DNA of 64,000 nt, taken from Laetmonice hystrix. Lineage: Eukaryota. Below are positions 18,001-47,359 of this stretch, piece by piece. How positions within the stretch are numbered: the first letter of the stretch is position 1; each line of letters begins with the position of its first letter. Both the position numbers and the translations under genes were made by a program. The notes below the pieces were generated by a model that did not search any database, was not told where the DNA came from, and worked only from the letters and a program-made list of their open reading frames with translations. The stretch lies in NCBI GenBank assembly GCA_965235115.1, contig OZ249436.1, forward strand, positions 12,588,001 through 12,652,000. Direction: 5' to 3'.

Positions 18001-21000
18001 GCACCCTGGTGTTTTCTGCCTGCAACATCTGTGTGTCATCTTTCTTTGTTTGTTTGTTACTTGGGGATGGGATATCTGATATAGAAAAGGCGTACAACGT
18101 CATTTGCCATTGTTAACTAAACCTTGACGGCAAACAGTCATTGGGACGACCTGACAACGTTGTCGGACGCGTACAAATGGTCTGTAGGGGACACAGATTA
18201 TATGAGAGTAGATGATATATAGACGAGACGTAGGGCCTGCCTCCTGGACAATAAAGGCATGGAAACATGAAACATGAGGCGTCCCTATACTACTGGCTAC
18301 TCTTGTATACAAGCAAACGGTACAGGGAGGCCAAACAGTACAGGGAGGAATCGCTACAAGGTATACTGGCTGACCTAGCACCTAAGCGAACACTACAGTG
18401 AGGCCCAAGAGTACAGTGAGGCCAAATAGTACACTGTGGGGCCAAGCAGTGTGGGAGGCCAACCAGTAGGGTGAGAAGTCCCTACATCTTACCGGCTGGC
18501 CTATAGTAGACATGCAAACACTACAGTGAGGTTGTGGAAATGAAAGGTACAAGCCAGGAGCATCTAATGTGAAAATCTGGAGAAGATACTCAAATGGGAA
18601 GTGTACACATCACAAGCATATATCTGTAGCGAACGTACGAGACCTATACGTTTGACAGTTATACATCTGGCCTAAGAATAATAATTTTGGACGGGCGTAG
18701 TTTAAGTTGACGTATCAAAAATGTAGCCATTTTTCGCTTATCATTGCTTTAATCTGTCTCTCGCCACAGGTGCCTGCCAGCCCGGCCAGGTGTACGTGGT
18801 GATTCCACCGCTGGCCGGAAGGCGGCAGTGCAGTCAGCGCCGCCGCCGCCGCTTCAGTGGAGCTGCGCTGCACCCTAGTGTTTTCTGCCTGCAACATCTG
18901 TGTGTCATCTTTCTTTGTTTGTTTGTTACTTGGGGATGGGATATCTAATATAGAAAAGGCGTACAACGTCATTTGCCATTGTTAACTAAACCTTGACGGC
19001 AAACAGTCATTGGGACGACCTGACAACGTTGTTGGACGCTTACAGATGGTCTGTAGGGGACACAGATTAGATGGGAGTAGATGATAGACGAGACGTATGG
19101 CCTGCCTCCTGGACAATAAAGGCATGGAAACATGAAACATGAGGCGTCCCTATACTACTGGCTACTCTTGTATACAAGCAAACGGTACAGGGAGGCCAAA
19201 CAGTACAGGGAGGAATCGCTACAAGGTATACTGGCTGACCTACCACCCAAGCGAACACTACAGTGAGGCCAAAGAGTACAGTGAGGCCAAATAGTACACT
19301 GTGGGGCCAAGCAGTGTGGGAGGCCAACCAGTAGAGTGAGAAGTCCCTACATCTTACCGGCTGGCCTATAGTAGCCATGCAAACACTACAGTGAGGTAGT
19401 GGAAATGAAAGGTACAGGCGAGGAGCATCTAATGTAAAATTCTGGAGAACATACTGAAATGGGAAGTGTACACATCACAAGCATATATCTGTAGCGAACG
19501 TACGAGACCTATACGTTTGACAGTTATACATCTGGCCTAAGAATAATAATTTTGGGCGGGCGTAGTTTAAGTTGACGTATCAAAAATGTAGCCATTTTTC
19601 GCTTATCATTGCTTTAACCTGTCTCTCGCCACAGGTGCCTGCCAGCCCGGCCAGGTGTACGTGGTGATTCCACCGCTGGCCGGAAGGCGGCAGTGCAGTC
19701 AGCGCCGCCGCCGCCGCTTCAGTGGAGCTGCGCTGCACCCTGGTGTTTTCTGCCTGCAACATCTGTGTGTCATCTTTCTTTGTTTGTTTGTTACTTGGGG
19801 ATGGGATATCTGATATAAAAAAGGCGTACAACGTCATTTGCCATTGTTAACTAAACCTTGACGGCAAACAGTCATTGGGACGACCTGACAACGTTGTCGG
19901 ACGCGTACAAATGGTCTGTAGGGGACACAGATTATATGAGAGTAGATGATATATAGACGAGACGTAGGGCCTGCCTCCTGGACAATAAAGGCATGGAAAC
20001 ATGAAACATGAGGCGTCCCTATACTACTGGCTACTCTTGTATACAAGCAAACGGTACAGGGAGGCCAAACAGTACAGGGAGGAATCGCTACAAGGTATAC
20101 TGGCTGACCTAGCACCTAAGCGAACACTACAGTGAGGCCCAAGAGTACAGTGAGGCCAAATAGTACACTGTGGGGCCAAGCAGTGTGGGAGGCCAACCAG
20201 TAGGGTGAGAAGTCCCTACATCTTACCGGCTGGCCTATAGTAGACATGCAAACACTACAGTGAGGTTGTGGAAATGAAAGGTACAAGCCAGGAGCATCTA
20301 ATGTGAAAATCTGGAGAAGATACTCAAATGGGAAGTGTACACATCACAAGCATATATCTGTAGCGAACGTACGAGACCTATACGTTTGACAGTTATACAT
20401 CTGGCCTAAGAATAATAATTTTGGACGGGCGTAGTTTAAGTTGACGTATCAAAAATGTAGCCATTTTTCGCTTATCATTGCTTTAATCTGTCTCTCGCCA
20501 CAGGTGCCTGCCAGCCCGGCCAGGTGTACGTGGTGATTCCACCGCTGGCCGGAAGGCGGCAGTGCAGTCAGCGCCGCCGCCGCCGCTTCAGTGGAGCTGC
20601 GCTGCACCCTAGTGTTTTCTGCCTGCAACATCTGTGTGTCATCTTTCTTTGTTTGTTTGTTACTTGGGGATGGGATATCTAATATAGAAAAGGCGTACAA
20701 CGTCATTTGCCATTGTTAACTAAACCTTGACGGCAAACAGTCATTGGGACGACCTGACAACGTTGTTGGACGCTTACAGATGGTCTGTAGGGGACACAGA
20801 TTAGATGGGAGTAGATGATAGACGAGACGTATGGCCTGCCTCCTGGACAATAAAGGCATGGAAACATGAAACATGAGGCGTCCCTATACTACTGGCTACT
20901 CTTGTATACAAGCAAACGGTACAGGGAGGCCAAACAGTACAGGGAGGAATCGCTACAAGGTATACTGGCTGACCTACCACCCAAGCGAACACTACAGTGA

Positions 21001-24000
21001 GGCCAAAGAGTACAGTGAGGCCAAATAGTACACTGTGGGGCCAAGCAGTGTGGGAGGCCAACCAGTAGAGTGAGAAGTCCCTACATCTTACCGGCTGGCC
21101 TATAGTAGCCATGCAAACACTACAGTGAGGTAGTGGAAATGAAAGGTACAGGCGAGGAGCATCTAATGTAAAATTCTGGAGAACATACTGAAATGGGAAG
21201 TGTACACATCACAAGCATATATCTGTAGCGAACGTACGAGACCTATACGTTTGACAGTTATACATCTGGCCTAAGAATAATAATTTTGGGCGGGCGTAGT
21301 TTAAGTTGACGTATCAAAAATGTAGCCATTTTTCGCTTATCATTGCTTTAACCTGTCTCTCGCCACAGGTGCCTGCCAGCCCGGCCAGGTGTACGTGGTG
21401 ATTCCACCGCTGGCCGGAAGGCGGCAGTGCAGTCAGCGCCGCCGCCGCCGCTTCAGTGGAGCTGCGCTGCACCCTGGTGTTTTCTGCCTGCAACATCTGT
21501 GTGTCATCTTTCTTTGTTTGTTTGTTACTTGGGGATGGGATATCTGATATAGAAAAGGCGTACAACGTCATTTGCCATTGTTAACTAAACCTTGACGGCA
21601 AACAGTCATTGGGACGACCTGACAACGTTGTCGGACGCGTACAAATGGTCTGTAGGGGACACAGATTATATGAGAGTAGATGATATATAGACGAGACGTA
21701 GGGCCTGCCTCCTGGACAATAAAGGCATGGAAACATGAAACATGAGGCGTCCCTATACTACTGGCTACTCTTGTATACAAGCAAACGGTACAGGGAGGCC
21801 AAACAGTACAGGGAGGAATCGCTACAAGGTATACTGGCTGACCTAGCACCTAAGCGAACACTACAGTGAGGCCCAAGAGTACAGTGAGGCCAAATAGTAC
21901 ACTGTGGGGCCAAGCAGTGTGGGAGGCCAACCAGTAGGGTGAGAAGTCCCTACATCTTACCGGCTGGCCTATAGTAGACATGCAAACACTACAGTGAGGT
22001 TGTGGAAATGAAAGGTACAAGCCAGGAGCATCTAATGTGAAAATCTGGAGAAGATACTGAAATGGGAAGTGTACACATCACAAGCATATATCTGTAGCGA
22101 ACGTACGAGACCTATACGTTTGACAGTTATACATCTGGCCTAAGAATAATAATTTTGGACGGGCGTAGTTTAAGTTGACGTATCAAAAATGTAGCCATTT
22201 TTCGCTTATCATTGCTTTAATCTGTCTCTCGCCACAGGTGCCTGCCAGCCCGGCCAGGTGTACGTGGTGATTCCACCGCTGGCCGGAAGGCGGCAGTGCA
22301 GTCAGCGCCGCCGCCGCCGCTTCAGTGGAGCTGCGCTGCACCCTAGTGTTTTCTGCCTGCAACATCTGTGTGTCATCTTTCTTTGTTTGTTTGTTACTTG
22401 GGGATGGGATATCTAATATAGAAAAGGCGTACAACGTCATTTGCCATTGTTAACTAAACCTTGACGGCAAACAGTCATTGGGACGACCTGACAACGTTGT
22501 CGGACGCGTACAAATGGTCTGTAGGGGACACAGATTATATGAGAGTAGATGATATATAGACGAGACGTAGGGCCTGCCTCCTGGACAATAAAGGCATGGA
22601 AACATGAAACATGAGGCGTCCCTATACTACTGGCTACTCTTGTATACAAGCAAACGGTACAGGGAGGCCAAACAGTACAGGGAGGAATCGCTACAAGGTA
22701 TACTGGCTGACCTAGCACCTAAGCGAACACTACAGTGAGGCCCAAGAGTACAGTGAGGCCAAATAGTACACTGTGGGGCCAAGCAGTGTGGGAGGCCAAC
22801 CAGTAGGGTGAGAAGTCCCTACATCTTACCGGCTGGCCTATAGTAGACATGCAAACACTACAGTGAGGTTGTGGAAATGAAAGGTACAAGCCAGGAGCAT
22901 CTAATGTGAAAATCTGGAGAAGATACTGAAATGGGAAGTGTACACATAACAAGCATATATCTGTAGCGAACGTACGAGACCTATACGTTTGACAGTTATA
23001 CATCTGGCCTAAGAATAATAATTTTGGACGGGCGTAGTTTAAGTTGACGTATCAAAAATGTAGCCATTTTTCGCTTATCATTGCTTTAATCTGTCTCTCG
23101 CCACAGGTGCCTGCCAGCCCGGCCAGGTGTACGTGGTGATTCCACCGCTGGCCGGAAGGCGGCAGTGCAGTCAGCGCCGCCGCGCCGCTTCAGTGGAGCT
23201 GCGCTGCACCCTGGTGTTTTCTGCCTGCAACATCTGTGTGTCATCTTTCTTTGTTTGTTTGTTACTTGGGGATGGGATATCTGATATAGAAAAGGCGTAC
23301 AACGTCATTTGCCATTGTTAACTAAACCTTGACGGCAAACAGTCATTGGGACGACCTGACAACGTTGTTGGACGCTTACAGATGGTCTGTAGGGGACACA
23401 GATTAGATGGGAGTAGATGATAGACGAGACGTATGGCCTGCCTCCTGGAGAATGAAGGCACGGAAACATGAAACATAAGGCGTCCCTATACTACTGGCTA
23501 CTCTTGTATACAAGCAAACGGTACAGGGAGGCCAAACAGTACAGGGAGGACTCGCTACAAGGTATACTGGCTGACCTAGCTCCCAAGCGAACACTACAGT
23601 GAGGCCAAAGAGTACATTGAGGCCAAATAGTACACTGTGGGGCCAAGCAGTGTGGGAGGCCAACCAGTAGAGTGAGAAGTCCCTACATCTTACCGGCTGG
23701 CCTATAGTAGCCATGCAAACACTACAGTGAGGTAGTGGAAATGAAAGGTACAGGCGAGGAGCATCTAATGTAAAAGTCTGGAGAACATACTGAAATGGGA
23801 AGTGTACACATCACAAGCATATATCTGTAGCGAACGTACGAGACCTATACGTTTGACAGTTATACATCTGGCCTAAGAATAATAATTTTGGGCGGGCGTA
23901 GTTTAAGTTGACGTATCAAAAATGTAGCCATTTTTCGCTTATCATTGCTTTAACCTGTCTCTCGCCACAGGTGCCTGCCAGCCCGGCCAGGTGTACGTGG

Positions 24001-27000
24001 TGATTCCACCGCTGGCCGGAAGGCGGCAGTGCAGTCAGCGCCGCCGCCGCCGCTTCAGTGAAGCTGCGCTGCACCCTGGTGTTTTCTGCCTGCAACATCT
24101 GTGTGTCATCTTTCTTTGTTTGTTTGTTACTTGGGGATGGGATATCTGATATAGAAAAGGCGTACAACGTCATTTGCCATTGTTAACTAAACCTTGACGG
24201 CAAACAGTCATTGGGACGACCTGACAACGTTGTTGGACGCTTACAGATGGTCTGTAGGGGACACAGATTAGATGGGAGTAGATGATAGACGAGACGTATG
24301 GCCTGCCTCCTGGACAATGAAGGCACGGAAACATGAAACATAAGGCGCCCCTATACTACTGGCTACTCTTGTATACAAGCAAACGGTACAGGGAGGCCAA
24401 ACAGTACAGGGAGGACTCGCTACAAGGTATACTGGCTGACCTACCTCCCAAGCGAACACTACAGTGAGGCCAAAGAGTACATTGAGGCCAAATAGTACAC
24501 TGTGGGGCCAAGCAGTGTGGGAGGCCAACCAGTAGGGTGAGAAGTCCCTACATCTTACCGGCTGGCCTATAGTAGACATGCAAACACTACAGTGAGGTTG
24601 TGGAAATGAAAGGTACAAGCCAGGAGCATCTAATGTGAAAATCTGGAGAAGATACTCAAATGGGAAGTGTACACATCACAAGCATATATCTGTAGCGAAC
24701 GTACGAGACCTATACGTTTGACAGTTATACATCTGGCCTAAGAATAATAATTTTGGGCGGGCGTAGTTTAAGTTGACGTATCAAAAATGTAGCCATTTTT
24801 CGCTTATCATTGCTTTAACCTGTCTCTCGCCACAGGTGCCTGCCAGCCCGGCCAGGTGTACGTGGTGATTCCACCGCTGGCCGGAAGGCGGCAGTGCAGT
24901 CAGCGCCGCCGCCGCCGCTTCAGTGGAGCTGCGCTGCACCCTAGTGTTTTCTGCCTGCAACATCTGTGTGTCATCTTTCTTTGTTTGTTTGTTACTTGGG
25001 GATGGGATATCTGATATAGAAAAGGCGTACAACGTCATTTGCCATTGTTAACTAAACCTTGACGGCAAACAGTCATTGGGACGACCTGACAACGTTGTCG
25101 GACGCGTACAAATGGTCTGTAGGGGACACAGATTATAAGAGAGTAGATGATATATAGACGAGACGTAGGGCCTGCCTCCTGGACAATAAAGGCATGGAAA
25201 CATGAAACATGAGGCGTCCCTATACTACTGGCTACTCTTGTATACAAGCAAACGGTACAGGGAGGCCAAACAGTACAGGGAGGAATCGCTACAAGGTATA
25301 CTGGCTGACCTACCACCCAAGCGAACAGTACAGTGAGGCCAAAGAGTACAGTGAGGCCAAATAGTACACTGTGGGGCCAAGCAGTGTGGGAGGCCAACCA
25401 GTAGAGTGAGAAGTCCCTACATCTTACCGGCTGGCCTATAGTAGCCATGCAAACACTACAGTGAGGTAGTGGAAATGAAAGGTACAGGCGAGGAGCATCT
25501 AATGTGAAAATCTGGAGAACATACTGAAATGGGAAGTGTACACATCACAAGCATATATCTGTAGCGAACGTACGAGACCTATACGTTTGACAGTTATACA
25601 TCTGGCCTAAGAATAATAATTTTGGGCGGGCGTAGTTTAAGTTGACGTATCAAAAATGTAGCCATTTTTCGCTTATCATTGCTTTAACCTGTCTCTCGCC
25701 ACAGGTGCCTGCCAGCCCGGCCAGGTGTACGTGGTGATTCCACCGCTGGCCGGAAGGCGGCAGTGCAGTCAGCGCCGCCGCCGCCGCTTCAGTGGAGCTG
25801 CGCTGCACCCTGGTGTTTTCTGCCTGCAACATCTGTGTGTCATCTTTCTTTGTTTGTTTGTTACTTGGGGATGGGATATCTGATATAGAAAAGGCGTACA
25901 ACGTCATTTGCCATTGTTAATTAAACCTTGACGGCAAACAGTCATTGGGACGACCTGACAACGTTGTTGGACGCTTACAGATGGTCTGTAGGGGACACAG
26001 ATTAGATGGGAGTAGATGATAGACGAGACGTAGGGCCTGCCTCCTGGACAATAAAGGCATGGAAACATGAAACATGAGGCGTCCCTATACTACTGGCTAC
26101 TCTTGTATACAAGCAAACGGTACAGGGAGGCCAAACAGTACAGGGAGGAATCGCTACAAGGTATACTGGCTGACCTACCACCCAAGCGAACAGTACAGTG
26201 AGGCCAAAGAGTACAGTGAGGCCAAATAGTACACTGTGGGGCCAAGCAGTGTGGGAGGCCAACCAGTAGAGTGAGAAGTCCCTACATCTTACCGGCTGGC
26301 CTATAGTAGCCATGCAAACACTACAGTGAGGTAGTGGAAATGAAAGGTACAGGCGAGGAGCATCTAATGTGAAAATCTGGAGAACATACTGAAATGGGAA
26401 GTGTACACATCACAAGCATATATCTGTAGCGAACGTACGAGACCTATACGTTTGACAGTTATACATCTGGCCTAAGAATAATAATTTTGGGCGGGCGTAG
26501 TTTAAGTTGACGTATCAAAAATGTAGCCATTTTTCGCTTATCATTGCTTTAACCTGTCTCTCGCCACAGGTGCCTGCCAGCCCGGCCAGGTGTACGTGGT
26601 GATTCCACCGCTGGCCGGAAGGCGGCAGTGCAGTCAGCGCCGCCGCCGCCGCTTCAGTGGAGCTGCGCTGCACCCTAGTGTTTTCTGCCTGCAACATCTG
26701 TGTGTCATCTTTCTTTGTTTGTTTGTTACTTGGGGATGGGATATCTAATATAGAAAAGGCGTACAACGTCATTTGCCATTGTTAACTAAACCTTGACGGC
26801 AAACAGTCATTGGGACGACCTGACAACGTTGTCGGACGCGTACAAATGGTCTGTAGGGGACACAGATTATATGAGAGTAGATGATATATAGACGAGACGT
26901 AGGGCCTGCCTCCTGGACAATAAAGGCATGGAAACATGAAACATGAGGCGTCCCTATACTACTGGCTACTCTTGTATACAAGCAAACGGTACAGGGAGGC

Positions 27001-27506
27001 CAAACAGTACAGGGAGGAATCGCTACAAGGTATACTGGCTGACCTACCACCCAAGCGAACACTACAGTGAGGCCAAAGAGTACAGTGAGGCCAAATAGTA
27101 CACTGTGGGGCCAAGCAGTGTGGGAGGCCAACCAGTAGAGTGAGAAGTCCCTACATCTTACCGGCTGGCCTATAGTAGCCATGCAAACACTACAGTGAGG
27201 TTGTGGAAATGAAAGGTACAAGCCAGGAGCATCTAATGTGAAAATCTGGAGAAGATACTGAAATGGGAAGTGTACACATCACAAGCATATATCTGTAGCG
27301 AACGTACGAGACCTATACGTTTGACAGTTATACATCTGGCCTAAGAATAATAATTTTGGACGGGCGTAGTTTAAGTTGACGTATCAAAAATGTAGCCATT
27401 TTTCGCTTATCATTGCTTTAATCTGTCTCTCGCCACAGGTGCCTGCCAGCCCGGCCAGGTGTACGTGGTGATTCCACCGTTGGCCGGAAGGCGGCAGTGC
27501 AGTCAG
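1..27506. repeat. Macrosatellite, left block: about 32 head-to-tail monomers of 865-869 bp (continues beyond window start)
   Basis: Near-identical sequence recurs every 864-869 bp (ORF-track starts 516, 1385, 2250, 3115...). Variants: A (869 bp, gatgatatatagacg), B (865 bp, gatgatagacg), C (ggagaatgaaggcacgg). Ends at ...gcagtgcagtcag 27506. Confidence 0.99.
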
Positions 27507-28181
27507 TAGGTTCCTATGAGGTCAGATGGCGCCAGGGTTTGTGGGTAGTTCCTATAACTATCGTCAGATGGCGCCAGGGTTTGTCTAGGTAGTTCCTATG
27601 ATTATCGTCAGATGGCGCCAGGAGTTGTAGTTCCTATGATTATCGTCAGATGGCGCTAGGGTTTGTCTAGGTAGTTCCTATGATTATCGCCAGAGGGCGC
27701 CAGGGGTTGTAGTTCCTATCATTATCGTCAGATGGCGCTAGGGTTTGTCTAGGTAGTTCCTATCATTATCATCAGATGGCGCCAGGGTTTGTGTAGGTAG
27801 TCCCTATAACTATCGTCAGATGGCGCCAGGGTTTGTGTAAGTAGTTCCTATGAGTATCGTCAGATGGCGACAGGGTTTGTCTAGGTAGTTCCTATGATTA
27901 TGGTCAGAGGGCGCCAGGGGGTTGTACTTCCTATCATTATCGTCAGATGGCGCTAGGGTTTGTCTAGGTAGTTCCAATGGTTTTCGTCAGATGGCGCCAG
28001 GGTTTGTGTAAGTAGTTCCTATGAGTATCGTCAGATGGCGACAGGGTTTGTCTAGGTAGTTCCTATGATTATCGCCAGAGGGCGCCAGGGGTTGTAGTTC
28101 CTATCATTATTGTCAGATGGCGCTAGGGTTTGTCTAGGTTGTTCCTATGGTTATCGTCAGATGGCGCCAGGATTTGTGTAC
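27507..28181 (+). repeat. 38-44 bp minisatellite, copy 1 (about 16 units), consensus tagttcctatgattatcgtcagatggcgccagggtttgtctagg
   Basis: Directly visible tandem units with long (44 bp) and short (38 bp, ...aggggttg) variants. Confidence 0.97.
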
Positions 28182-30575
28182 TAGTCAGGGAGCATGTTGC
28201 ATGAAATAAAGTCCCGTGGGCATTTTGTGATGAAAGCAAGCGACCCCCCTAGATGTCTTTATGGGGTCCCAAATAATACAAAAAAACTTGTTGGCAATCT
28301 AGGAATGGCGGCTACTTCCGGTAAAACGCTATATCCAAAATGGCTGCCAGTCGCCATATTAAAATTGTATGTTTCGATTCCCTTGTCATAGAATCATGTA
28401 TAATAGCACTTTTTCCACTAAATCTCATACGAGGAATCGATTTCTGGCATTATTATTTGATTTGGAGGCCTCCTTCCGGTTGAAATCCAAGAAAAATGCT
28501 GCTAAATGTAACTACTGAACTACTTGGCCTAGGAACATGTGTGATAGGACTTTTTCGACCAAATGTGACATGAAGAATCTATTCCCGCCATTATTTTTCC
28601 ATTTGGAGGCCTCCTTGATGCGGATATCCAAGATGGCTGTCAATGATGAGCTTGAAAATATCTTTTATCAGTGCTCTTGAAGTCTGCATTGACTGGTCTA
28701 TCTTCAAGCAGTTAGCAACCCCCTAGATGTCTTTATGGGGTCCGAAATAATACAAACTTGTTGGCAACCAAGAATGGCAGCTACTTCCGGTAAAGAGCGA
28801 AATCCAAAATGGTTGCCAGTCGCCATATTAAAATTGTATGTTTCGATTCAGATGTCATAGAAGCATGTATAATAACACTTTTTCCACTAAATCTAACACG
28901 AGGAACCGATTTCTGGCATTATTATGCTATTTGGAGGCCTCCTCCCGGTTGAAATCTAAGATGGCCACCAGTGGCTAGTAACATGTATGATAGGACTTTT
29001 TCGACCAAATGTGGCATGAAGAATCTATTCCCGGCATTATTTTTTTCCATTATGAGGCCTCCCTGATGCTCATATCCAAGATGGCTGTCAGTGATGAGCT
29101 TGAAAATATCACTTATCAGTGCTCTTGAAGTCTGCATTGACCGAGAATTGCGCCGACTGTAAGTTAATTGCACGTTTTGATAGCTGGTCTATCTTCAAGC
29201 AATTAGCAACCCCCTAAATGTCTTTGTGGAGTCCGAAATAATACAAAACGAGCTTGTGAAGCTTATAGCCCCCACCAAGAACTATGGATTCTTGAAAAAA
29301 CGATTCAATTGCTCTTTGAAGGGCAAAGAAAATATTGTCAAATGAAACTCCGTCTGTACATGTACTTCGTCTGCATCTTAGTAACTATGCAGTTATGTAC
29401 AGTTTTGACAGCGTTATGCAGCGTGAAGATGTATTTTGTCTGCATCTTAGTAACTATGCAGTTGTGTACAGTTTGATAGCGTTATCCGGCGTGAAGATGT
29501 ACTTTGTCTACATCTTATAGTAACTATGCAGTTATGTTCAGTTTGATAGCGTTATCCGGCGTGAAGATGTACTTTGTCTGCATCTTATGCAGTTATATAT
29601 ACATACAGTTTGATAGTGTTATCCGGCGTGAAGGCAATTGCAAATACGCCTGACCTTGATTGATCTTTAGAGGTCAGTTATGTACAGTTTGATAGCGTTA
29701 TCCGGCGTGAAGTGTTTTATAGATACAGGCAATTGCAAATATGCTTGACTTTGATTGACCTTTAGAGGTTGGTTAAATTCATGGAAATTCATGGTTTTCT
29801 CTCTCAATTTTTATCCCGTCGGAGAGACAGCCCCCAACTGAGTAGGGACAAATTATCTGTGGGTCCAGGAACTATGCGTACTTCTGGCATGCTTGTTGCC
29901 CCTCATGCCTTCTGTCAGCGGGAACGAAATCCAGAAAATGTCAAATATCACTTATCTGTGGTAAGTCTGCATTGATCGAGAATAGCACTGACTTTAAATT
30001 GTTTGTCTGGACAATCTGTTTAAACCTTGCTAACTGCTTAAAGATGGACCAGCTATCAAAACGTGCAATATAACTTACAGTCAGTGCAATTCTCGGTTAA
30101 TGCAGACTTCAAAAGCACTGATAAGTGACATTTTCAAGCTCACCACCGACAGCCATCTTGGATATCAGCATCAAGGAGGCCTCCAAATGCAAAAATGGAA
30201 TAGGTTCTTCATGTCACATTTGGTCGAAAAAGTCCTATCATACATGTTCCTAGGCCAAGCAGTTCAATAGTTACATTTTTCAGCATGGCCACTGGCGGCC
30301 ATCTTGGATTTCTACCGGAAGGAGGCCTCCAAATAAAATAATAATGCCAGAAATCGATTCCTCGTATGAGATTTAGTGGAAAAAGTGCTATTATACATGA
30401 TTCTATGACAAGGGAATCGAAACATACAATTTTAATATGGCGACTGGCAGCCATTTTGGATTTCGCGCTTTACCGGAAGTAGCCGCCATTCCTAGATTGC
30501 CAACAAGTTTTTTTTGTATTATTTGGGACCCCATAAAGACATCTAGGGGGGTCGCTTGCTTTCATCACAAAATGC
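28182..30575. mobile_element. Non-autonomous long-inverted-repeat DNA element (possibly Academ-like)
   Basis: Left arm 28220-~29240 (two tandem ~0.5 kb units) is the reverse complement of ~30048-30575 (gcattttgtgatgaaagcaagcgacccccctagatg / catctaggggggtcgcttgctttcatcacaaaatgc). Arms are rich in CAAGATGGC/CAAAATGGC and CTTCCGG. Putative left end TAGTCAGGG at 28182; no matching right terminus or TSD; no transposase ORF. Superfamily is a guess. Confidence 0.7.
29350..29770 (+). repeat. ~70 bp tandem repeat (4-5 degenerate units) inside the inverted-repeat element
   Basis: Recurrent tctgcatcttagtaactatgcagttatgtacagtttgatagcgttatccggcgtgaagatgtactttg. Confidence 0.85.
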
Positions 30576-31349
30576 ATCGGTGTGGTAAAAACCCATTTTT
30601 CTCCGAGGCAAAGACATGAACGAATCATGAACGGGTAGGCCCACACTCGCTCTCTCTCGGATTTCGCCGTCTAAAGAGGAAGTAACTGGCGCCACCTGGT
30701 GAGTATTCGGGTAGGCCTACCTCTTTTTACCGAGGACTAACTAGTTACCGCGGACTACCGAGGATCACCGAGGATGGGAAGCACATAATACTTTTTGCCG
30801 AGGACTACCGGAGACGACCGAGCATCACCGAGGATGAGGCGCCAGAGGGCTAGGCGTGCATAAGCGATACCCCGGCCTCGATGTGGCTGCCCCCATGCAG
30901 CTGGGGAAGTAGTAGACTCTAGTAGCTAGGCCCCTACTGCCTATACTAGCCTATAGCATGAGTAGGCCATCCACTGACCTATTAGGCCAATTTAGGGCCT
31001 ATATATAGGCCTATAGGTCTACTGTAAATCAGGTATTTTTCGCGTGTTTTAATTTCGCGATTTTCGCGTTTAAAAAAACGCGAAATTAAGAAACGCGAAA
31101 TAAACACTTAGAATGGCGCATTTCCAGTAATATCCGCTTACAAAACAAAACAACACTTCATTACCTTCTTTAACTTGGCAGTTGCTTAGCTCTTGCTAAT
31201 TTGCGTGGTGGGGAATTAAAACTGTTGAATTTAATAGGCCCTAGGCCTACATGTCTTTACTTTTAGATGGGGATGCCATTGCCTAAACGCGAGTTTCTCT
31301 CCTTGGTAAAAACCACGTCTCCGACTGAATCCCCATTGACATGGAAGCA

Positions 31350-31491
31350 ATTTAAGGACGTCGCTAATTTAACATAGGCCTAGAAGTGAATGGTTGCTAG
31401 GTCGTTAACTTATTTTCGACCTAGCAACCCATTCACTTCTATGTTAAATTAGCGACGTCCTTAAATAAGGACCTTTAGTAAAACTGGCCCC
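31350..31491. mobile_element. Truncated palindromic MITE related to the one at 34488
   Basis: atttaaggacgtcgctaatttaacata...tatgttaaattagcgacgtccttaaat hairpin; right end tttagtaaaactggcccc resembles tttagtgagacgggcccc; left terminus missing. Confidence 0.7.
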
Positions 31492-32928
31492 GTCGACATA
31501 GGCCTAGAACATATAGCTAGGCCTACATATTCATATCGTATGCCCGGGCCCTGATTTCAATCACGACTTCATCGAGCACGCGCGCACAGGTCTGTCTGCA
31601 TTTATAAGTCCTAAAAGTTCTACACGCACAAAGTAGGTAGCTACACGTCTGCTGGGAATGACCCGTGTGTCCAATGATCAATAGACCTTCACTGCCGAAT
31701 TATTCACCAACCAAGTCCTTTTTAATCTCCACAAACCGGAGGCTGTAAATCAATGAACGTTATAGCAGATCATGAGCGAGATCAGATCCAATTTACCCCA
31801 CCAAACACAGTCCATGATGACGGCACACGGTCCAACATGAATGGTTAATGTCCGGCCATACAGCGGGTTTGATAACATGGGCCGAGTAATGGAGACATCA
31901 CAAAATACTGGACGGTGCAGCTCATTCCGCTACCCTCTAGATGTCCTAGAACGGTTATTCCTCCGTGGTAACCTCCAGACAAAATATTTGGGTAGGGGTT
32001 CGGGTTAAGGTCAGGGATAGGATAGGATAGGATAGGGATATGTTTTGGGGAGGTATAGGGACCGGGGTTAGGGGTTAAAGATAAGGTCAGGGTTAGGGAT
32101 CCTCAATTCTGACCAGATTTCATGGGGGTTAAGATACCACGCTAGATATATACCCAGAACTATAGACTGAAAGGTGCAATAGCCTGGTGTAAAACGCCTG
32201 GGCCAGATTATTCCACCATCTCGTCTAAGCCTGTATGCTTAGGTAAAGATAGTCTCAAGATATTTCAGAGCTATGCCTTGTTCAACGTTGTTCTCTGGAT
32301 GTCCAGGAATTATAGCCGGAGGTAGACCAATAGCCTGCCGTCAAAGGGTGGGGCCACATTATTCTCGTCTCGTCTAAGCCTGTATGCCTGTCAGAGCTAC
32401 AGTTGCGGATCTACCCGTATATGTAGGTAGTTCCTATGAATACCGTCAAATGACTTCAAATCACAAGTTCAGCCGTGTTTCAAGTCACAGTCAAGAAATT
32501 AGAGAAGGAAGGAAATGATAGAGTGGTATATATAGTTCACGGTAATGCAAACCTCTGACCCACTTAATCTGCGTGACGGAATCACATGTTTTTGGACATG
32601 CACTTTTGGGTCAAGTACTGCAAAGTGAAATCTCTGCTCTGTGGATGAAATCAAGTAGTCCGCAACATTTTCCGATGCGAGTATATGTATTTTTGCTTCA
32701 GATAAATGCAGTATTTTGATACTGTACTATAAGTATAGGCCTAACCACAGTGGCGGTTTTACTGTTAAGAATTTCCGTGACGGAATCACATGACGGAATC
32801 ACCAGTGCACTTTCATCCTTTTGCAATAGGCTAACAAATGAGCGAGTCATTATCTAAAAACGTTAAGTGTGGACCGCAGTATGGAGTGGAAATGGGGGAC
32901 CGATTGACCACCTACTCTGGTGTAAGGC

Positions 32929-33864
32929 CAGTTCCTATGAGTATCGTCAGATGGCGTCGGACAGGGTTTGCGTAGGTAGTTTCTATGAGTATCGCCAGAT
33001 AGCGCCATGGTTTGTGGGTAGTTCCTATAACTATCGTCAGATGGCGCCAGGGTTTGTCTAGGTAGTTCCTATGATTATCGTCAGATGGCGCTAGGGTTTG
33101 TCTAGGTAGTTCCTATCATTATCATCAGATGGCGCCAGGGTTTGTGTAGGTTCCTATAACTATCGTCAGATGGCGCCAGGGTTTGTCTAGGTAGTTCCTA
33201 TGATTATCGTCAGAGGGCGCCAGGAGTTGTAGTTCCTATCATTATCGTCAGATGGCGCTAGGGTTTGTCTAGGTAGTTCCTATGATTATCGTCAGAGGGC
33301 GCCAGGGGTTGTAGTTCTTATCATTATCGTCAGATGGCGCCAGGGTTTGTCTAGGTAGTTCTTAGAATTATCGTCAGAGGGTGCCAGGGGTTGTAGTTCC
33401 TATCATTATCGTCAGATGGCGCTAGGGTTTGTCTAGGTAGTTCCTATCATTATCATCAGATGGCGCCAGGGTTTGTGTAGGTAGTCCCTATAACTATCGT
33501 CAGATGGCGCCAGGGTTTGTGTAAGTAGTTACTATGAGTATCGTCAGATGGCGACAGGGTTTGTCTAGGTAGTTCCTATGATTATCGTCAGAGGGCGCCA
33601 GGGGTTGTAGTTCCTATCATTATCGTCAGATGGCGCTAGGGTTTGTCTAGGTAGTTCCAATGGTTATCGTCAGATGGCGCCAGGGTTTGTGTAAGTAGTT
33701 CCTATGAGTATCGTCAGATGGCGACAGGGTTTGTCTAGGTAGTTCCTATGATTATCACCAGAGGTCGCCAGGGGTTGTAGTTCCTATCATTATTGTCAGA
33801 TGGCGCTAGGGTTTGTCTAGGTAGTTCCTATGGTTATCGTCAGATGGCGCCAGGGTTTGTGTAC
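32929..33864 (+). repeat. 38-44 bp minisatellite, copy 2 (about 22 units)
   Basis: Same unit as 27507-28181, same order of variant units in the distal part, same exit sequence gtgtactagtcagggagcat. Confidence 0.97.
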
Positions 33865-34487
33865 TAGTCAGGGAGCATTGTAGCAACCGTTTTTGTCGCA
33901 ACGTCCATTTTTGTCGCAATGCGACATTTCCGGACGGCATTGCCGTCCGTAAATGTCGCAATGCGACAAAAATGGACAACAATGCCGTCCGGAAATGTCG
34001 CAACGGACATTGCGACATTTACAGACGGCATTGTTGTCCGGAAATGTCGCAGTGCAACATTTACGGGTGGCAATGCCGTCCGGAAATGTCGCAACCGGAG
34101 GTTGCGACAAAAACGGACGGGAACGGGCATGTAAAATGTAAGCGTGTCCGCTATTGTCGTAATGGGGAAACGGGGGGGGGGGCTTTTATGGAGTAGAACT
34201 ATTACGTATTTAGGTTGGGATTAGGTTTTGTTCAATCACGTGTTAAGTTTCAAGTGAACAACCGAGTACTGAATGTATTGTTGAAGTGTTGTGTTACCAT
34301 TATTCTTGAGTATCCTTATATATGCTTTATATACACTTTCACCTACTTAGGCCTACTAGTGTGTTTAACTTAATATTTAACTTCACTTACTGATAATATG
34401 CAGTACGTCTAACATTAATAATAATATCTTACTTATAAATTATATTTAACCTAAGCTTAGTCATACACTCGCATGTTGGCCAATCAG

Positions 34488-34864
34488 GGGCCCGTTTCAC
34501 TAAGGCTAGTTAATAACCAGATCGTTAAGTTAACATAGGAGTGAATGGAAGGCTGCTGGTTACAGCCAACATTCACTGCTATGTTAACTTAACGATCTGG
34601 TTATTAACCAGCCTAAAGCCGCTTTCACATGCACACGGTTTGCGGCGTGCGGTGTGCGTTTTTGCAGAAATGGAACAACTGAAAATAGATATAACCGTTC
34701 ACATGCCCCCGGTTTGCGGTGTGCGGCGATTTACATTGGCTACATTATTAACAAAAACGCACGCCGCACGCCGCACGCCGCACGCCGCACGCCGCACGCC
34801 GCACACCGCACGCCGCACGCCGCACACCGTATGCATGTGAAAGCGGCTTTAGTGAGACGGGCCC
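34488..34864. mobile_element. Palindromic PIF/Harbinger-like MITE with CAG target duplication
   Basis: cag|GGGCCCGTTTCACTAA...TTAGTGAGACGGGCCC|cag; arms gttaataaccagatcgttaagttaacatag / ctatgttaacttaacgatctggttattaac. Confidence 0.85.
34617..34848. mobile_element. Second MITE nested in the right arm of the 34488 element; contains (CGCCGCA)n
   Basis: taa|AGCCGCTTTCACATGCACACGG...CCGTATGCATGTGAAAGCGGCT|tta (TWA flanks, Harbinger-like). Removing it essentially restores the host palindrome. Confidence 0.85.
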
Positions 34865-35595
34865 CAGGGCCTAGCGCATAAATTAAAGACCGCGTGGTCA
34901 CCGGAGACAAAGCCTGGAGGAGAGAGACACTCCAGAGAGAGAAAGGGGTGCGCGCTGGATATGGATGTAGGCCTACATTGAATACGAGAATATAACCTCT
35001 CTCAAGATGTGAACATCACACAGCTGTCCTTGTTTCTTTTAATACAAAGCCTGTTTATCTTAAGGTGAACTACCCTAAGACCAGCGGTAACAGTTAAGAG
35101 TAATTTTCCCTCTCTGAGGGTGGTGTCATCCTGAGTATTGTTATTTATTATTATTATCTTGCTAAAGTTGAACAGTACTCTAGTTATTTCTTGTATACTT
35201 GAGGTTCCCACCGCGGCCTCGGCCACTCTCGGCCAATCAGCTTCGATGATCGTTTCCAACCCGCGGTCACATTACTATTAATGAGGCCTCGGCCCAGGAC
35301 ATGTGCCGCTCTCGGCCAATCAGCTTCGATGATCGTTTTCCATGTTCCCCCATTACGACAATAACGGACACGCTTACATTTTACATGCCCAATGCCGTAG
35401 GTAAATGTCGCAATGCGACATTTCCGGACGGAATTGCCGTCCGTAAATGTCGCATTGCGACAAAAATGGACATTGCGACAAAAACGGCCGTCCGTAAATG
35501 TCGCAATGTCCGTTGCGACATTTCCGGACAGCATTGTTGTCCGGAAATCTCGCATTGCGACAAAAATGGACGTTGCGACAAAAACGGTTGCTACA

Positions 35596-38500
35596 CTGCA
35601 CCCTGGTGTTTTTCTGCCTGCAACATCTGTGTGTCATCTTTCTTTGTTTGTTTGTTACTTGGGGATGGGATATCTGATATAGAAAAGGCGTACAACGTCA
35701 CTTGCCATTGTTAACTAAACCTTGACGGCAAACAGTCATTGGGACGACCTGACAACGTTGTTGGACGCTTACAGATGGTCTGTAGGGGACACAGATTAGA
35801 TGGGAGTAGATGATAGACGAGACGTATGGCCTGCCTCCTGGACAATAAAGGCATGGAAACATGAAACATGAGGCGTCCCTATACTACTGGCTACTCTTGT
35901 ATACAAGCAAACGGTACAGGGGGGCCAAACAGTACAGGGAGGAATCGCTACAAGGTATACTGGCTGACCTAGCACCAAAGCGAACACTACAGTGAGGCCA
36001 AAGAGTACAGTCAGGCCAAATAGTACACTGTGGGGCCAAGCAGTGTGGGAGGCCAACCAGTAGAGTGAGAAGTCCCTACATCTTACCGGCTGGCCTATAG
36101 TAGCCATGCAAACACTACAGTGAGGTAGTGGAAATGAAAGGTACAGGCGAGGAGCATCTAATGTGAAAATCTGGAGAACATACTGAAATGGGAAGTGTCC
36201 ACATCACAACCATATATCTGTAGCGAACGTACGAGAGCTATACGTTTGACAGTTATACATCTGGCCTAAGAATAATAATTTTGGGCGGGCGTAGTTTAAG
36301 TTGACGTACCAAAAATGTAGCCATTTTTCGCTTATCATTGCTTTAACCTGTCTCTCGCCACAGGTGCCTGCCAGCCCGGCCAGGTGTACGTGGTGATTCC
36401 ACCGCTGGCCGGAAGGCGGCAGTGTAGTCAGCGCCGCCGCCGCCGCTTCAGTGGAGCTGCGCTGCACCCTGGTGTTTTCTGCCTGCAACATCTCTGTACT
36501 CTTTCTTTGTTTGTTTGTTACTTGGGGATGGGATATCTGATATAGAAAAGGCGTACAACGTCATTTGCCATTGTTAACTAAACCTTGACCGCAAACAGTC
36601 ATTGGGACAACCTGACAACGTTGTCGGACGCTTACAGATGGTCTGTAGGGGACACAGATTAGATGGGAGTAGATGATATAGGCCCTATAGACGAGACGTA
36701 TGGCCTGCCTCCTGGACAATAAAGGCATGGAAACATGAAACATGAGGCGTCCCTATACTACTGGCTACTCTTGTATACAAGCAAACGGTACAGGGAGGCC
36801 AAACAGTACAGGGAGGAATCGCTACAAGGTATACTGGCTGACCTAGCACCCAAGCGAACACTACAGTGAGGCCAAAGAGTACAGTGAGGCCAAATATAGT
36901 ACACTGTGGGGCCAAGCAGTGTGGGAGGCCAAGCAGTAGAGTGAGAAGTCCCTACATCTTACCGGCTGGCCTATAGTAGCCATGCAAACACTACAGTGAG
37001 GTAATGGAAATGAAAGGTACAGGCGAGGAGCATCTAATGTGAAAATCTGGAGAAGATACTCAAATGGGAAGTGTACCTACACATCACAACCATATATCTG
37101 TAGCGAACGTACGAGAGCTATACGTTTGACAGTTATACATCTGGCCTAAGAATAATAATTTTGGGCGGGCGTAGTTTCAAGTTGACGTATCAAAAATGTA
37201 GCCATTTTTCGCTTATCATTGCTTTAACCTGTCTCTCGCCACAGGTGCCTGCCAGCCCGGCCAGGTGTACGTGGTGATTCCACCGCTGGCCGGAAGACGG
37301 CAGTGCAGTCAGCGCCGCCGCCGCCGCTTCAGTGGAGCTGCGCTGCACCCTGGTGTTTTCTGCCTGCAACATCTGTGTGTCATCTTTCTTTGTTTGTTTG
37401 TTACTTGGGGATGGGATATCTGATATAGAAAAGGCGTACAACGTCATTTGCCATTGTTAACTAAACCTTTACGGCAAACAGTCATTGGGACGACCTGACA
37501 ACGTTGTCGGACGCTTACAGATGGTCTGTAGGGGACACAGATTAGATGGGAGTAGATCATATATAGACGAGACGTATGGCCTGCCTCCTGGACAATAAAG
37601 GCATAGAAACATGAAGCATGAGGCGTCCCTATACTACTGGCTACTCTTGTATACAAGCAAACGGTACAGGGAGGCCAAACAGTACAGGGAGGAATCGCTA
37701 CAAGGTATACTGGCTGACCTAGCACCTAAGCGAACACTACAGTGAGGCCCAAGAGTACAGTGAGGCCAAATAGTACACTGTGGGCCAAGCAGTGTGGGAG
37801 GCCAACCAGTAGAGTGAGAAGTCCCTACATCTTACCGGCTGGCCTATAGTAGCCATGCAAACACTACAGTGAGGTAGTGGAAATGAAAGGTACAAGCCAG
37901 GAGCATCTAATGTGAAAATCTGGAGAACATACTCAAATGGGAAGTGTACACATCACAACCATATATCTGTAGCGAACGTACGAGACCTATACGTTTGACA
38001 GTTATACATCTGGCCTAAGAATAATAATTTTGGGCGGGCGTAGTTTAAGTTGACGTATCAAAAATGTAGCCATTTTTCGCTTATCATTGCTTTAACCTGT
38101 CTCTCGCCACAGGTGCCTGCCAGCCCGGCCAGGTGTACGTGGTGATTCCACCGCTGGCCGGAAGGCGGCAGTGCAGTCAGCGCCGCCGCCGCCGCTTCAG
38201 TGGAGCTGCGCTGCACCCTGGTGTTTTCTGCCTGCAACATCTGTGTGTCATCTTTCTTTGTTTGTTTGTTACTTGGGGATGGGATATCTGATATAGAAAA
38301 GGCGTACAACGTCATTTGCCATTGTTAACTAAACCTTGACCGCAAACAGTCATTGGGACGACCTGACAACGTTGTTGGACGCTTACAGATGGTCTGTAGG
38401 GGACACAGATTAGATGGGAGTAGATGATATATAGACGAGACGTATGGCCTGCCTCCTGGACAATAAAGGCATGGAAACATGAAGCATGAGGCGTCCCTAT

Positions 38501-41500
38501 ACTACTGGCTACTCTTGTATACAAGCAAACGGTACAGGGAGGCCAAACAGTACAGGGAGGAATCGCTACAAGGTATACTGGCTGACCTAGCACCTAAGCG
38601 AACACTACAGTGAGGCCCAAGAGTACAGTGAGGCCAAATAGTACACTGTGGGCCAAGCAGTGTGGGAGGCCAACCAGTAGAGTGAGAAGTCCCTACATCT
38701 TACCGGCTGGCCTATAGTAGCCATGCAAACACTACAGTGAGGTAGTGGAAATGAAAGGTACAAGCCGGGAGCATCTAATGTGAAAATCTGGAGAAGATAC
38801 TCAAATAGGAAGTGTACACATCACAACCATAGGCCTATATCTGTAGCGAACGTACGAGACCTATACGTTTGACAGTTATACATCTGGCCTAAGAATAATA
38901 ATTTTGGGCGGGCGTAGTTTAAGTTGACGTATCAAAAATGTAGCCATTTTTCGCTTATCATTCCTTTAACCTGTCTCTCGCCACAGGTGCCTGCCAGCTG
39001 TTTTCTGCCTGCAACATCTGTGTGTCATCTTTCTTTGTTTGTTTGTTACTTGGGGATGGGATATCTGATATAGAAAAGGCGTACAACGTCACTTGCCATT
39101 GTTAACTAAACCTTGACGGCAAACAGTCATTGGGACGACCTGACAACGTTGTTGGACGCTTACAGATGGTCTGTAGGGGACACAGATTAGATGGGAGTAG
39201 ATGATAGACGAGACGTATGGCCTGCCTCCTGGACAATAAAGGCATGGAAACATGAAACATGAGGCGTCCCTATACTACTGGCTACTCTTGTATACAAGCA
39301 AACGGTACAGGGGGGCCAAACAGTACAGGGAGGAATCGCTACAAGGTATACTGGCTGACCTAGCACCAAAGCGAACACTACAGTGAGGCCAAAGAGTACA
39401 GTCAGGCCAAATAGTACACTGTGGGGCCAAGCAGTGTGGGAGGCCAACCAGTAGAGTGAGAAGTCCCTACATCTTACCGGCTGGCCTATAGTAGCCATGC
39501 AAACACTACAGTGAGGTAGTGGAAATGAAAGGTACAGGCGAGGAGCATCTAATGTGAAAATCTGGAGAACATACTGAAATGGGAAGTGTCCACATCACAA
39601 CCATATATCTGTAGCGAACGTACGAGAGCTATACGTTTGACAGTTATACATCTGGCCTAAGAATAATAATTTTGGGCGGGCGTAGTTTAAGTTGACGTAC
39701 CAAAAATGTAGCCATTTTTCGCTTATCATTGCTTTAACCTGTCTCTCGCCACAGGTGCCTGCCAGCCCGGCCAGGTGTACGTGGTGATTCCACCGCTGGC
39801 CGGAAGGCGGCAGTGTAGTCAGCGCCGCCGCCGCCGCTTCAGTGGAGCTGCGCTGCACCCTGGTGTTTTCTGCCTGCAACATCTCTGTACTCTTTCTTTG
39901 TTTGTTTGTTACTTGGGGATGGGATATCTGATATAGAAAAGGCGTACAACGTCATTTGCCATTGTTAACTAAACCTTGACCGCAAACAGTCATTGGGACA
40001 ACCTGACAACGTTGTCGGACGCTTACAGATGGTCTGTAGGGGACACAGATTAGATGGGAGTAGATGATATAGGCCCTATAGACGAGACGTATGGCCTGCC
40101 TCCTGGACAATAAAGGCATGGAAACATGAAACATGAGGCGTCCCTATACTACTGGCTACTCTTGTATACAAGCAAACGGTACAGGGAGGCCAAACAGTAC
40201 AGGGAGGAATCGCTACAAGGTATACTGGCTGACCTAGCACCCAAGCGAACACTACAGTGAGGCCAAAGAGTACAGTGAGGCCAAATATAGTACACTGTGG
40301 GGCCAAGCAGTGTGGGAGGCCAAGCAGTAGAGTGAGAAGTCCCTACATCTTACCGGCTGGCCTATAGTAGCCATGCAAACACTACAGTGAGGTAATGGAA
40401 ATGAAAGGTACAGGCGAGGAGCATCTAATGTGAAAATCTGGAGAAGATACTCAAATGGGAAGTGTACCTACACATCACAACCATATATCTGTAGCGAACG
40501 TACGAGACCTATACGTTTGACAGTTATACATCTGGCCTAAGAATAATAATTTTGGGCGGACGTAGTTTCAAGTTGACGTATCAAAAATGTAGCCATTTTT
40601 CGCTTATCATTGCTTTAACCTGTCTCTCGCCACAGGTGCCTGCCAGCCCGGCCAGGTGTACGTGGTGATTCCACCGCTGGCCGGAAGACGGCAGTGCAGT
40701 CAGCGCCGCCGCCGCCGCTTCAGTGGAGCTGCGCTGCACCCTGGTGTTTTCTGCCTGCAACATCTGTGTGTCATCTTTCTTTGTTTGTTTGTTACTTGGG
40801 GATGGGATATCTGATATAGAAAAGGCGTACAACGTCATTTGCCATTGTTAACTAAACCTTTACGGCAAACAGTCATTGGGACGACCTGACAACGTTGTCG
40901 GACGCTTACAGATGGTCTGTAGGGGACACAGATTAGATGGGAGTAGATCATATATAGACGAGACGTATGGCCTGCCTCCTGGACAATAAAGGCATAGAAA
41001 CATGAAGCATGAGGCGTCCCTATACTACTGGCTACTCTTGTATACAAGCAAACGGTACAGGGAGGCCAAACAGTACAGGGAGGAATCGCTACAAGGTATA
41101 CTGGCTGACCTAGCACCTAAGCGAACACTACAGTGAGGCCCAAGAGTACAGTGAGGCCAAATAGTACACTGTGGGCCAAGCAGTGTGGGAGGCCAACCAG
41201 TAGAGTGAGAAGTCCCTACATCTTACCGGCTGGCCTATAGTAGCCATGCAAACACTACAGTGAGGTAGTGGAAATGAAAGGTACAAGCCAGGAGCATCTA
41301 ATGTGAAAATCTGGAGAACATACTCAAATGGGAAGTGTACACATCACAACCATATATCTGTAGCGAACGTACGAGACCTATACGTTTGACAGTTATACAT
41401 CTGGCCTAAGAATAATAATTTTGGGCGGGCGTAGTTTAAGTTGACGTATCAAAAATGTAGCCATTTTTCGCTTATCATTGCTTTAACCTGTCTCTCGCCA

Positions 41501-46849: not shown

Positions 46850-47359
46850 CTCACTCAGCCATATTTATCAGCCTATTTTGTCAATGAGTGGGCTAGAACC
46901 TGGGCCAGAGGCGGCCTATAGGCCGACTTCAGCCCCCCCCCCCCCCCCCCGGAAAAAGTATCTTCCGACGCTAGATTCTGTTTGCCTAGGCCCCTCAATA
47001 ATACAATGGAAATTATCGAGCCACTCAATAATTCATGGAAATTACCGGCCTGGGGCTGGTTAGCTCGAGAAACTCTAACCCTCGAGCTCCCGAAGAGTCA
47101 ACAGTTCAGTCATCGACTGGCATGGTAAGCCTACAACGGGACTAAAAAATCTGATGTAGGCTACCTACGGTTAGGCCTACTCAGTTCCGTTGACTTCGTA
47201 TGTTACCATCTTACTCCAACAAGCTAGTTACCATCTTTGCTATCTAAATTACAACTTTATTATCTGGTCTCTAAACGTGACATAAGAACCAAATACAAAA
47301 CTATTAGGCTTATGCTATTGCGGTAATGATGCGTTATCCGGCGTTAATTTAGTTTACTG

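Follow-up and report, generated by a model that had tools for sequence, protein, structure and literature searches.

Tandem arrays of a putative two-part CTCF site in an insertion within an annelid macrosatellite

The window analyzed here (the whole stretch of 64,000 nucleotides from contig OZ249436.1 of Laetmonice hystrix) contains two macrosatellite arrays on the forward strand. The left array (1..27506) is built from an 867-bp unit with 865- and 869-bp variants, lacks the two-part site described below and continues past the left end of the window. The right array (35606..46850) consists of a different four-unit higher-order repeat of 881, 868, 874 and 768 bp. Divergence is 1.7% and 1.9% within the left and right arrays and 2.4% between them, with one fixed column. 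Between them lies an insertion of foreign DNA, 8.1 kb long (27507 to about 35600): a nest of transposon relics set into one 867-bp unit, of which it replaces about 30 bp. In a quick tree of a single gene, the DMGDH of the host clusters with those of Owenia and Capitella (SH-aLRT 96).

The insertion carries two tandem arrays of short units. Array A (27507..28185) has 16 units, the first of them damaged at the junction, and array B (about 32930..33868) contains 22 units built in the same way; the arrays are 97.7% identical. All 38 units lie on the forward strand, as the first-pass annotation had recognized when it described about 38 copies in two arrays of the same orientation. Each unit comprises an upstream motif, a 5-bp spacer, a 19-bp CTCF-type core and a 5–11-bp linker, and most are 44 or 38 bp long (44 bp in 23 of 36 intervals, 38 bp in eight, and 39, 41, 42, 42 and 48 bp in the remainder). 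A relaxed two-part pattern, allowing up to two mismatches, has 36 matches across the whole window, every one within the arrays, and none of 100 shuffled sequences contained any match. Elsewhere in the insertion, a degenerate lone unit (32420..32458, forward strand) keeps the upstream motif, the spacer and a C at core position 4 and has lost the 3′ half of the core; contigs link it to the array units. A lone core-only CTCF-type match of 17.0 bits (p 9e-7) lies on the reverse strand at 30687..30705, without an upstream motif.

The DNA between the arrays (28196..32929) is a mosaic of a foldback/MITE-like element with long inverted repeats (28220–30575), a 70-bp tandem repeat and smaller relics, in which no transposase-like frame was seen. 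The 18 frames of at least 80 aa around the insertion resemble repeat read-throughs when judged by eye, and none of the 16 sub-threshold Rfam matches to miRNA families touches the arrays, all of them falling on hairpins. Array B starts within a fragment of another high-copy repeat and stops at the insertion point of a non-autonomous terminal-inverted-repeat element with nested MITEs (33869..35605), whose ends we take to be hAT-like. A 10-bp copy of the start of this element follows array A (28186..28195, forward strand), which shows array A to have been copied from a B-like array after the element had inserted. A target duplication suspected at the array ends was rejected, as the shared sequence is this same element start; no target-site duplication was found at the 8.1-kb insertion, and none is left at the terminal-inverted-repeat element. 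At the right junction, the final ~10 bp of the element are also macrosatellite sequence; with 30 bp lost and this ~10 bp in common, the junctions resemble repair or rearrangement joints.

Two further structural readings were rejected. Helitrons start with TC and end in CTAG (CTRR) preceded by a GC-rich hairpin; no hairpin in the unit is stronger than those of shuffled sequences (z 0.52 and −0.72), and the unit is therefore no repeated terminator of the Helitron type. After the CTAG present here, the inverted-repeat element begins. LTR and Ngaro/PAT elements are marked by direct repeats, terminal or split, whose ends match, and by a second repeat pair, whereas arrays A and B begin at different points and blastn found no second pair.

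The carrier appears to occur in many copies. At 32093–33038, upstream of and into array B, near-identical public contigs run at a depth of about 800–2200, against about 40–55 on long flanking contigs, and the bins with canonical units reach a summed depth of 373,000–640,000, contig depth not being equal to copy number. Together with the near-identity of the two arrays, these depths suggest that the carrier is a young multi-copy repeat and that the unit itself is far more abundant. One run (X4) has a small share, and its two contigs cover neighboring relics, not the unit. At three positions all contig depth shows a base unlike that of the window, so the contig runs give no confirmation of this particular insertion. 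The exact unit pattern has no matches in metagenome_contigs or viral_contigs, and the relaxed two-part pattern has none in viral_contigs. In the metagenome, the two-part pattern has 14 matches, of which 11 look like chance, in prokaryote-type coding DNA; the design is found at three animal-like loci, one with three diverged tandem units. Locus L014 was rejected as animal-like because it sits in a 290-aa bacterial-type frame.

The core by itself is a modest match to CTCF. Scored with an approximate vertebrate CTCF matrix, it is mediocre: 26 of 37 scored units reach p<1e-4 and two reach p<1e-5, with a median of 9.4 bits. The best core-only match in the 867-bp macrosatellite unit scores 14.1 bits, better than a typical array unit, with an upstream match of 5/9. 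In the comparison with shuffled units that the first-pass annotation had proposed, the units beat most shuffles, but the core alone is still equalled by 53–92 of 20,000 (0.3–0.5%). Its description of the core itself was accurate: the commonest unit departs from the consensus it used at two positions, one mismatch remains in the G variant that has C at position 7, and the T/G variation is found at core position 12 (30 T, 8 G). The short 3′ core pattern matches exactly in 30 of 38 units, and the C closing GGCGC is retained in 33. The fixed departures from the vertebrate core, T at positions 4 and 7, both fall in the 5′ core part, which, in excerpts of a 2026 preprint (bioRxiv 10.64898/2026.10.19.759930), is absent from the invertebrate motif and ignored by invertebrate CTCF.

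Stronger evidence comes from a feature that the first-pass annotation had overlooked. In every unit the core is preceded, across the canonical spacer of 5 bp, by the upstream motif that CTCF fingers 9–11 read. Averaged over the units, the upstream match reaches 6.89/9 at spacer 5, whereas none of the 13 other spacers tested exceeds 3.53; the background per position is 0.0029 for 7/9 and 0.00025 for 8/9. Core and upstream motif at spacer 5 or 6 were jointly equalled in 0, 0, 0 and 1 of 20,000 shuffles each (two unit types, two shuffle modes), a result that counts as one observation because the 38 units are not independent. In none of seven control regions within the window did a good core and a good upstream motif occur together. 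When the unit bases are placed, by a mapping made in this analysis, onto the contacts of the human CTCF structure (PMC10484683, in part), where upstream bases at −16, −12, −10 and −9 are contacted specifically, the matching base is present in all 38 units at −12 (T) and in 35 each at −10 (C), −9 (C) and −16 (G). The units share order, orientation, spacer and contacted upstream bases with the vertebrate two-part motif as given in excerpts of PMC12885311 and PMC10484683, and differ from it in the T at core positions 4 and 7 and at upstream position 3 (35 of 38 units, where the vertebrate motif has C). With the upstream motif at the right spacing, the proposal that the units are CTCF sites stands on firmer ground than when it was first argued, and at the level of sequence it is well supported. 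Each unit is probably one complete two-part site, amplified head to tail, and the arrays would form a putative local barrier or anti-silencing cassette.

It is improbable that the likeness to CTCF is incidental and the unit a repeat internal to a transposon, to which some other factor (YY1/Pho-like, bHLH at an E-box or ZNF143/THAP11-like) or none binds. The finding was selected for its CTCF look, the core-only score recurs among shuffles at the frequency given above, and chance would explain 11 of the 14 metagenome matches; 29 of 38 units contain E-box and YY1-like words and eight a ZNF143/THAP11-like word, the YY1/Pho-like and ZNF143/THAP11-like labels being presumptive. Yet the upstream motif at exactly 5 bp lay outside that selection, with a background of 0.0003–0.003, and the unit hairpin, as noted, does not exceed shuffles. 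The G variant destroys the E-box and YY1-like words and still suits CTCF. The bHLH alternative raised earlier does have its E-box, but it is the weaker reading, with the word intact in only 29 units.

Variation among the units points the same way. The seven variant alleles found in at least four units each, a cut-off set after the data were seen, have a mean of +0.6 bits, whereas the mean over all 57 possible changes is −2.7 (p 0.005); the p value is 0.019 without CpG-type changes and 0.011 when matched for transitions, and 11 rare alleles look random (p 0.78). The variants that spread are biased toward those that the CTCF motif tolerates. This lean counts against a second alternative, which we consider unlikely: that a real two-part CTCF site, present by descent, was amplified neutrally and that the arrays are now methylated and silent, with little or no CTCF bound. 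A CpG at core positions 2–3 is present in 30 of 38 units, and full methylation at the core CpG blocks human CTCF (PMC10484683, in part). The array units have also lost the C at core position 4 that the degenerate unit and some loose-end variants keep, and the surroundings are satellite and transposon DNA. However, the arrays have a CpG observed/expected ratio of 0.76–0.83 and the genic part of the window one of 0.48, and the units show few CpG-type changes.

The first-pass annotation had placed the arrays inside a macrosatellite and likened them to DXZ4 as an insulator or loop anchor. The location is correct, but the arrays are part of the insertion and not of the 867-bp unit, and the loop-anchor claim was not upheld, since the sites lie outside the monomer, their carrier seems to be a young repeat and the invertebrate CTCFs tested do not anchor loops. 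In excerpts of PMC3491370, DXZ4/Dxz4 is likewise a tandem repeat with CTCF motifs, and an internal VNTR in the mouse monomers raises the number of sites; there, however, every monomer has the site within it, and the site is conserved across mammals, whereas none of the other 43 anchored macrosatellite monomers in the window contains the two-part motif. For the analogy to hold, the ~5.7-kb segment would have to form a tandem macrosatellite at other places in the genome. A selected insulator or loop anchor that is specific to this locus and belongs to the macrosatellite, parting the sub-arrays or shielding genes 13 kb downstream, is very doubtful. It would account for the single orientation of all sites and for the left and right satellite arrays differing in higher-order structure and slightly in sequence, but any interruption allows two sub-arrays to drift apart, and the junctions look like products of repair or rearrangement.

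Repeats carrying CTCF sites are already known from vertebrates, and the full two-part form has been described mainly there. Mouse DXPas34 (excerpts of PMC3149622) is also a minisatellite, with CpG-rich 30–34-bp monomers, a CTCF site in each and a proposed mobile-element origin; it is one rodent locus, at Tsix, with binding data, whereas the annelid family is apparently genome-wide, has the full two-part site and is known by sequence. The rodent B2 SINE (PMC3368268, in part) has spread CTCF sites with an M1+M2 two-part motif of 33/34 bp at shorter spacing, as lamprey hAT-Tip100 and Gypsy repeats have likewise spread CTCF sites (PMC5504073, in part). These vertebrate repeats are ChIP-proven and, in the excerpts concerned, not described as tandem arrays, in contrast to the 16–22 sites set head to tail here. 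What is new is a putative two-part CTCF site in a protostome repeat.

CTCF has been reported in annelids, and its eleven fingers have been called ancestral for bilaterians; echinoderm CTCF has lost two fingers, and the relevant fingers are diverged or lost in fly, sea urchin and sea squirt. The literature, as far as excerpted, dates the two-part motif to the vertebrate ancestor or calls it possibly vertebrate-restricted; excerpts of PMC12885311 describe the upstream motif as perhaps restricted to vertebrates and report that flies do not use it. In vertebrate cells, the CTCFs of fly, sea urchin, tunicate and lancelet did not anchor extrusion loops, according to parts of two 2026 preprints (including bioRxiv 10.64898/2026.10.19.759930).

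In the mechanism that we propose for the barrier cassette, fingers 9–11 would read the upstream motif, finger 8 would bridge the 5-bp spacer and fingers 3–7 would read the core. CTCF would bind unmethylated arrays at about one protein per 38–44-bp unit, keeping 0.7–0.9 kb nucleosome-poor, and DNA methylation could switch binding off through the CpG at the methylation-sensitive core position. The resulting local barrier or anti-silencing cassette would move along with a young composite repeat, which may be a non-autonomous element in dispersed copies or a tandem unit of ~5.7 kb, and the arrival of the arrays in the 867-bp macrosatellite would be an accident of insertion or rearrangement. More tentatively, the two-part code may date back to the bilaterian ancestor and annelid CTCF may still read it, perhaps with a preference for T at upstream position 3, and a selfish repeat with thousands of tandem site copies may shield its carriers from silencing and could titrate or redistribute CTCF genome-wide. 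The annelid repeat offers a ready-made test of whether DNA is read by fingers 9–11 in a protostome with an ancestral-type CTCF, and supplies thousands of natural variants for footprinting. If this reading is true, the repeat-driven spread of CTCF sites would extend from vertebrates to spiralians.

Array A (27507–28185, + strand) comprises 16 minisatellite units and array B (about 32930–33868, + strand) comprises 22. The unit count, shared orientation and T/G variation of the first-pass annotation all hold: the 38 units lie on the + strand, 30 with T and 8 with G, at a period of mostly 44 or 38 bp. Each unit reads (T/G/A)GTAGTTCC, then 5 bases, then a 19-bp CTCF-type core, and one full-length two-part site occupies 33 of its 38–44 bases. 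The final 515 bp of the two arrays align in register, with 502/514 identities.

The cores were scored with a vertebrate CTCF matrix after JASPAR MA0139.1; 37 units were scored, and the 38th was added for later counts. The median score was 9.4 bits, with p<1e-4 in 26/37 units and p<1e-5 in 2/37. Taken by itself, the core match would be weak evidence, because shuffled units attain the score in 53–92 of 20,000 trials and the macrosatellite monomer has a core-only match of its own at 14.1 bits. Single core-only matches of 15–17 bits, lacking the upstream motif, also occur at 30687–30705 (-), 62232–62250 (-) and 47405–47423 (+), the last in the stretch that separates the satellite from the first gene.

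In vertebrates, CTCF fingers 9–11 read a CTGCAGTTCC-type upstream motif, typically across a 5-bp linker, at 13–15% of sites (PMC12885311), and core and upstream motif together make a 33/34-bp site (PMC3368268). In the arrays, the match to the upstream 9-mer averages 6.89 at spacer 5; of the other 13 spacers between 0 and 13, none exceeds 3.53. Core plus upstream motif was attained in 0, 0, 0 and 1 of 20,000 shuffles. Outside the arrays, 136 of 47,060 positions have a 7/9 match at a spacer of 5 or 6, and 12 have an 8/9 match. In none of seven control regions in the window does a good core coincide with a good upstream motif. The human structure has specific upstream contacts at T(-12) and C(-10) and further contacts at -9, -15 and -16 (PMC10484683); on our own mapping, the units carry T(-12) in 38/38, C(-10), C(-9) and G(-16) in 35/38 each, and T, not C, at -15 in 35/38. 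The CTCF reading first proposed from the core, where support is modest, is thus strengthened by an upstream motif at a 5-bp spacer that had been missed. The units also contain E-box and YY1-like words (intact in 29/38) and a ZNF143/THAP11-like word (8/38), none of which accounts for both unit halves. The feature is real, and on sequence grounds complete two-part CTCF sites are strongly predicted.

Relative to the vertebrate core, the consensus has two departures, one at position 4 (T in 37/38) and one at position 7 (T in 34/38). Most units end in GGCGC (terminal C in 33/38), and 30/38 have a CpG at core positions 2–3. A 2026 preprint reports that the sequence recognised by every ortholog tested is without the 5' stretch of the vertebrate motif and its pair of cytosines, and that invertebrate CTCF requires a 3' terminal cytosine (10.64898/2026.10.19.759930); the C of the GGCGC end would probably be that cytosine. 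The seven core alleles common to at least four units average +0.6 bits, whereas the 57 substitutions that are possible average -2.7 (p 0.005; p 0.019 when CpG-type changes are left out; p 0.011 with transitions matched). The 11 rare alleles could not be told from random. Because the threshold was chosen after the data were seen and the units share descent, this apparent bias to better-scoring changes is suggestive only.

The DXZ4 analogy of the first-pass annotation is a misfit for this macrosatellite, which opens the window (1–27506) and resumes at about 35600–46850: the arrays sit in 8.1 kb of foreign DNA interrupting one 867-bp unit. After array B lies a non-autonomous terminal-inverted-repeat element (33869–35605), hAT-like by its end sequence. 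Array A is trailed by only the first 10 bp of this element and was therefore copied from a B-like array after the element inserted. The element's right end shares about 10 bp with the macrosatellite and about 30 bp of monomer are gone; judged from sequence, this junction is a rearrangement joint with no target duplication. Between the arrays lies a mosaic of inverted-repeat relics. It includes a foldback-like element (28220–30575) whose inverted repeats are about 480 bp long, whose left arm is duplicated in tandem, and which holds a 70-bp tandem repeat and many YY1-like words. Two MITEs, one with a 7-bp tandem repeat, are nested in the terminal-inverted-repeat element at 34480–34880.

Left of the insertion the satellite has irregular 865/869-bp variants; right of it (35606–46850), four units, one of them shortened by a deletion to 768 bp, form a higher-order repeat of 3391 bp. 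One fixed difference separates the two sides. In every 867-bp unit (e.g. at 26510–26760) a stretch resembling a splice acceptor precedes a short open frame that contains a run of arginines, and the monomer may be an amplified gene piece. A gene read by eye as CIAO2A/FAM96A-like (48500–50600, +) and the dimethylglycine dehydrogenase gene DMGDH (53200–60400, -), with a 51/31-bp minisatellite in an intron (55000–55450), lie 2–6 kb from the satellite.

Four public runs were found for 30580–33880, three of them, all from one sample, with 67–68% of sampled words. Contigs over 32093–33038 have depths of about 800–2200 and 0–2 differences from the window (32000–33075 compared); three long flanking contigs have about 40–55. 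Bins with canonical units reach summed depths of 373,000–640,000, with many diverged neighbours. From contig depth, which is no copy number, near-identical copies of the carrier (the composite repeat holding the arrays) number roughly tens and units roughly thousands. The carrier may be either a dispersed repeat or a ~5.7-kb tandem unit (28196–33878) whose last 1.1 copies landed here. At three positions all contig depth carries another base than the window; therefore, the public runs do not confirm this particular insertion.

When the host DMGDH was compared with 28 homologs picked from 120 and 8 listed, the best summed tblastn scores were those of a brachiopod, two annelids and a nemertean, and a quick single-gene tree grouped it with Owenia, Capitella and one further protein (SH-aLRT 96). 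Annelids are reported to have CTCF orthologs (PMC10658182), and of the motifs in open chromatin of Dimorphilus, that of CTCF is the most abundant (PMC7854359). An eleven-finger protein is described as the ancestral state, from which echinoderms and hemichordates have lost fingers (PMC13317027).

A relaxed two-part pattern matched 14 metagenome loci (9 distinct matches). Eleven (6 distinct matches) fall in 112–475-aa frames of prokaryote-like DNA and are taken as chance; L014, in a 290-aa bacterial-type frame, is one of them. Three loci look like animal non-coding DNA, L003 and L005 by appearance alone. The two-part site of L002 (1001–1030, -) is intronic to a TECPR1-like gene with best matches in insects, although the upstream motif is described as possibly vertebrate-restricted and absent in Drosophila (PMC12885311). 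The L003 match is also covered by a 130-codon stop-free frame. L005, eukaryotic, has three tandem diverged two-part units (68–225, -) with differing linkers, and an E-box palindrome in the linkers after them. Among the 9 distinct matches, these three take the top three places when compared at the five positions of the core that the pattern left free (1 in 84 by chance), which is no more than a lead to a two-part design in other animals.

The arrays are most likely rows of complete CTCF sites. The human CTCF footprint is reported as 40 bp (PMC3368268), close to the 38–44-bp period, and the units could therefore be filled nearly side by side. Unmethylated arrays would exclude nucleosomes and so locally shield the carrier from silencing, an effect that would be abolished if the core CpG were methylated; full methylation at this position inhibits human CTCF (PMC10484683). 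The vertebrate-style loop anchor originally suggested is unlikely, because the non-annelid CTCF orthologs reported on, from fly, sea urchin, tunicate and lancelet, do not restore loops or TADs when placed in vertebrate cells (10.64898/2026.10.19.759930; 10.64898/2026.10.19.760054).

In C. elegans, Helitron minisatellites are protein-independent barriers (10.64898/2026.08.08.743475). The two-part motif has been dated to the vertebrate ancestor (PMC5504073), and the literature searched, mostly without subscription papers, describes neither this motif in any annelid nor an array of this kind in any invertebrate. Repeats of CTCF sites are already known in vertebrates, as a minisatellite (DXPas34; PMC3149622), a macrosatellite (DXZ4; PMC3491370) and transposon-spread sites (B2, PMC3368268; lamprey hAT, PMC5504073); an array of predicted two-part sites in an annelid is a new variation on them.
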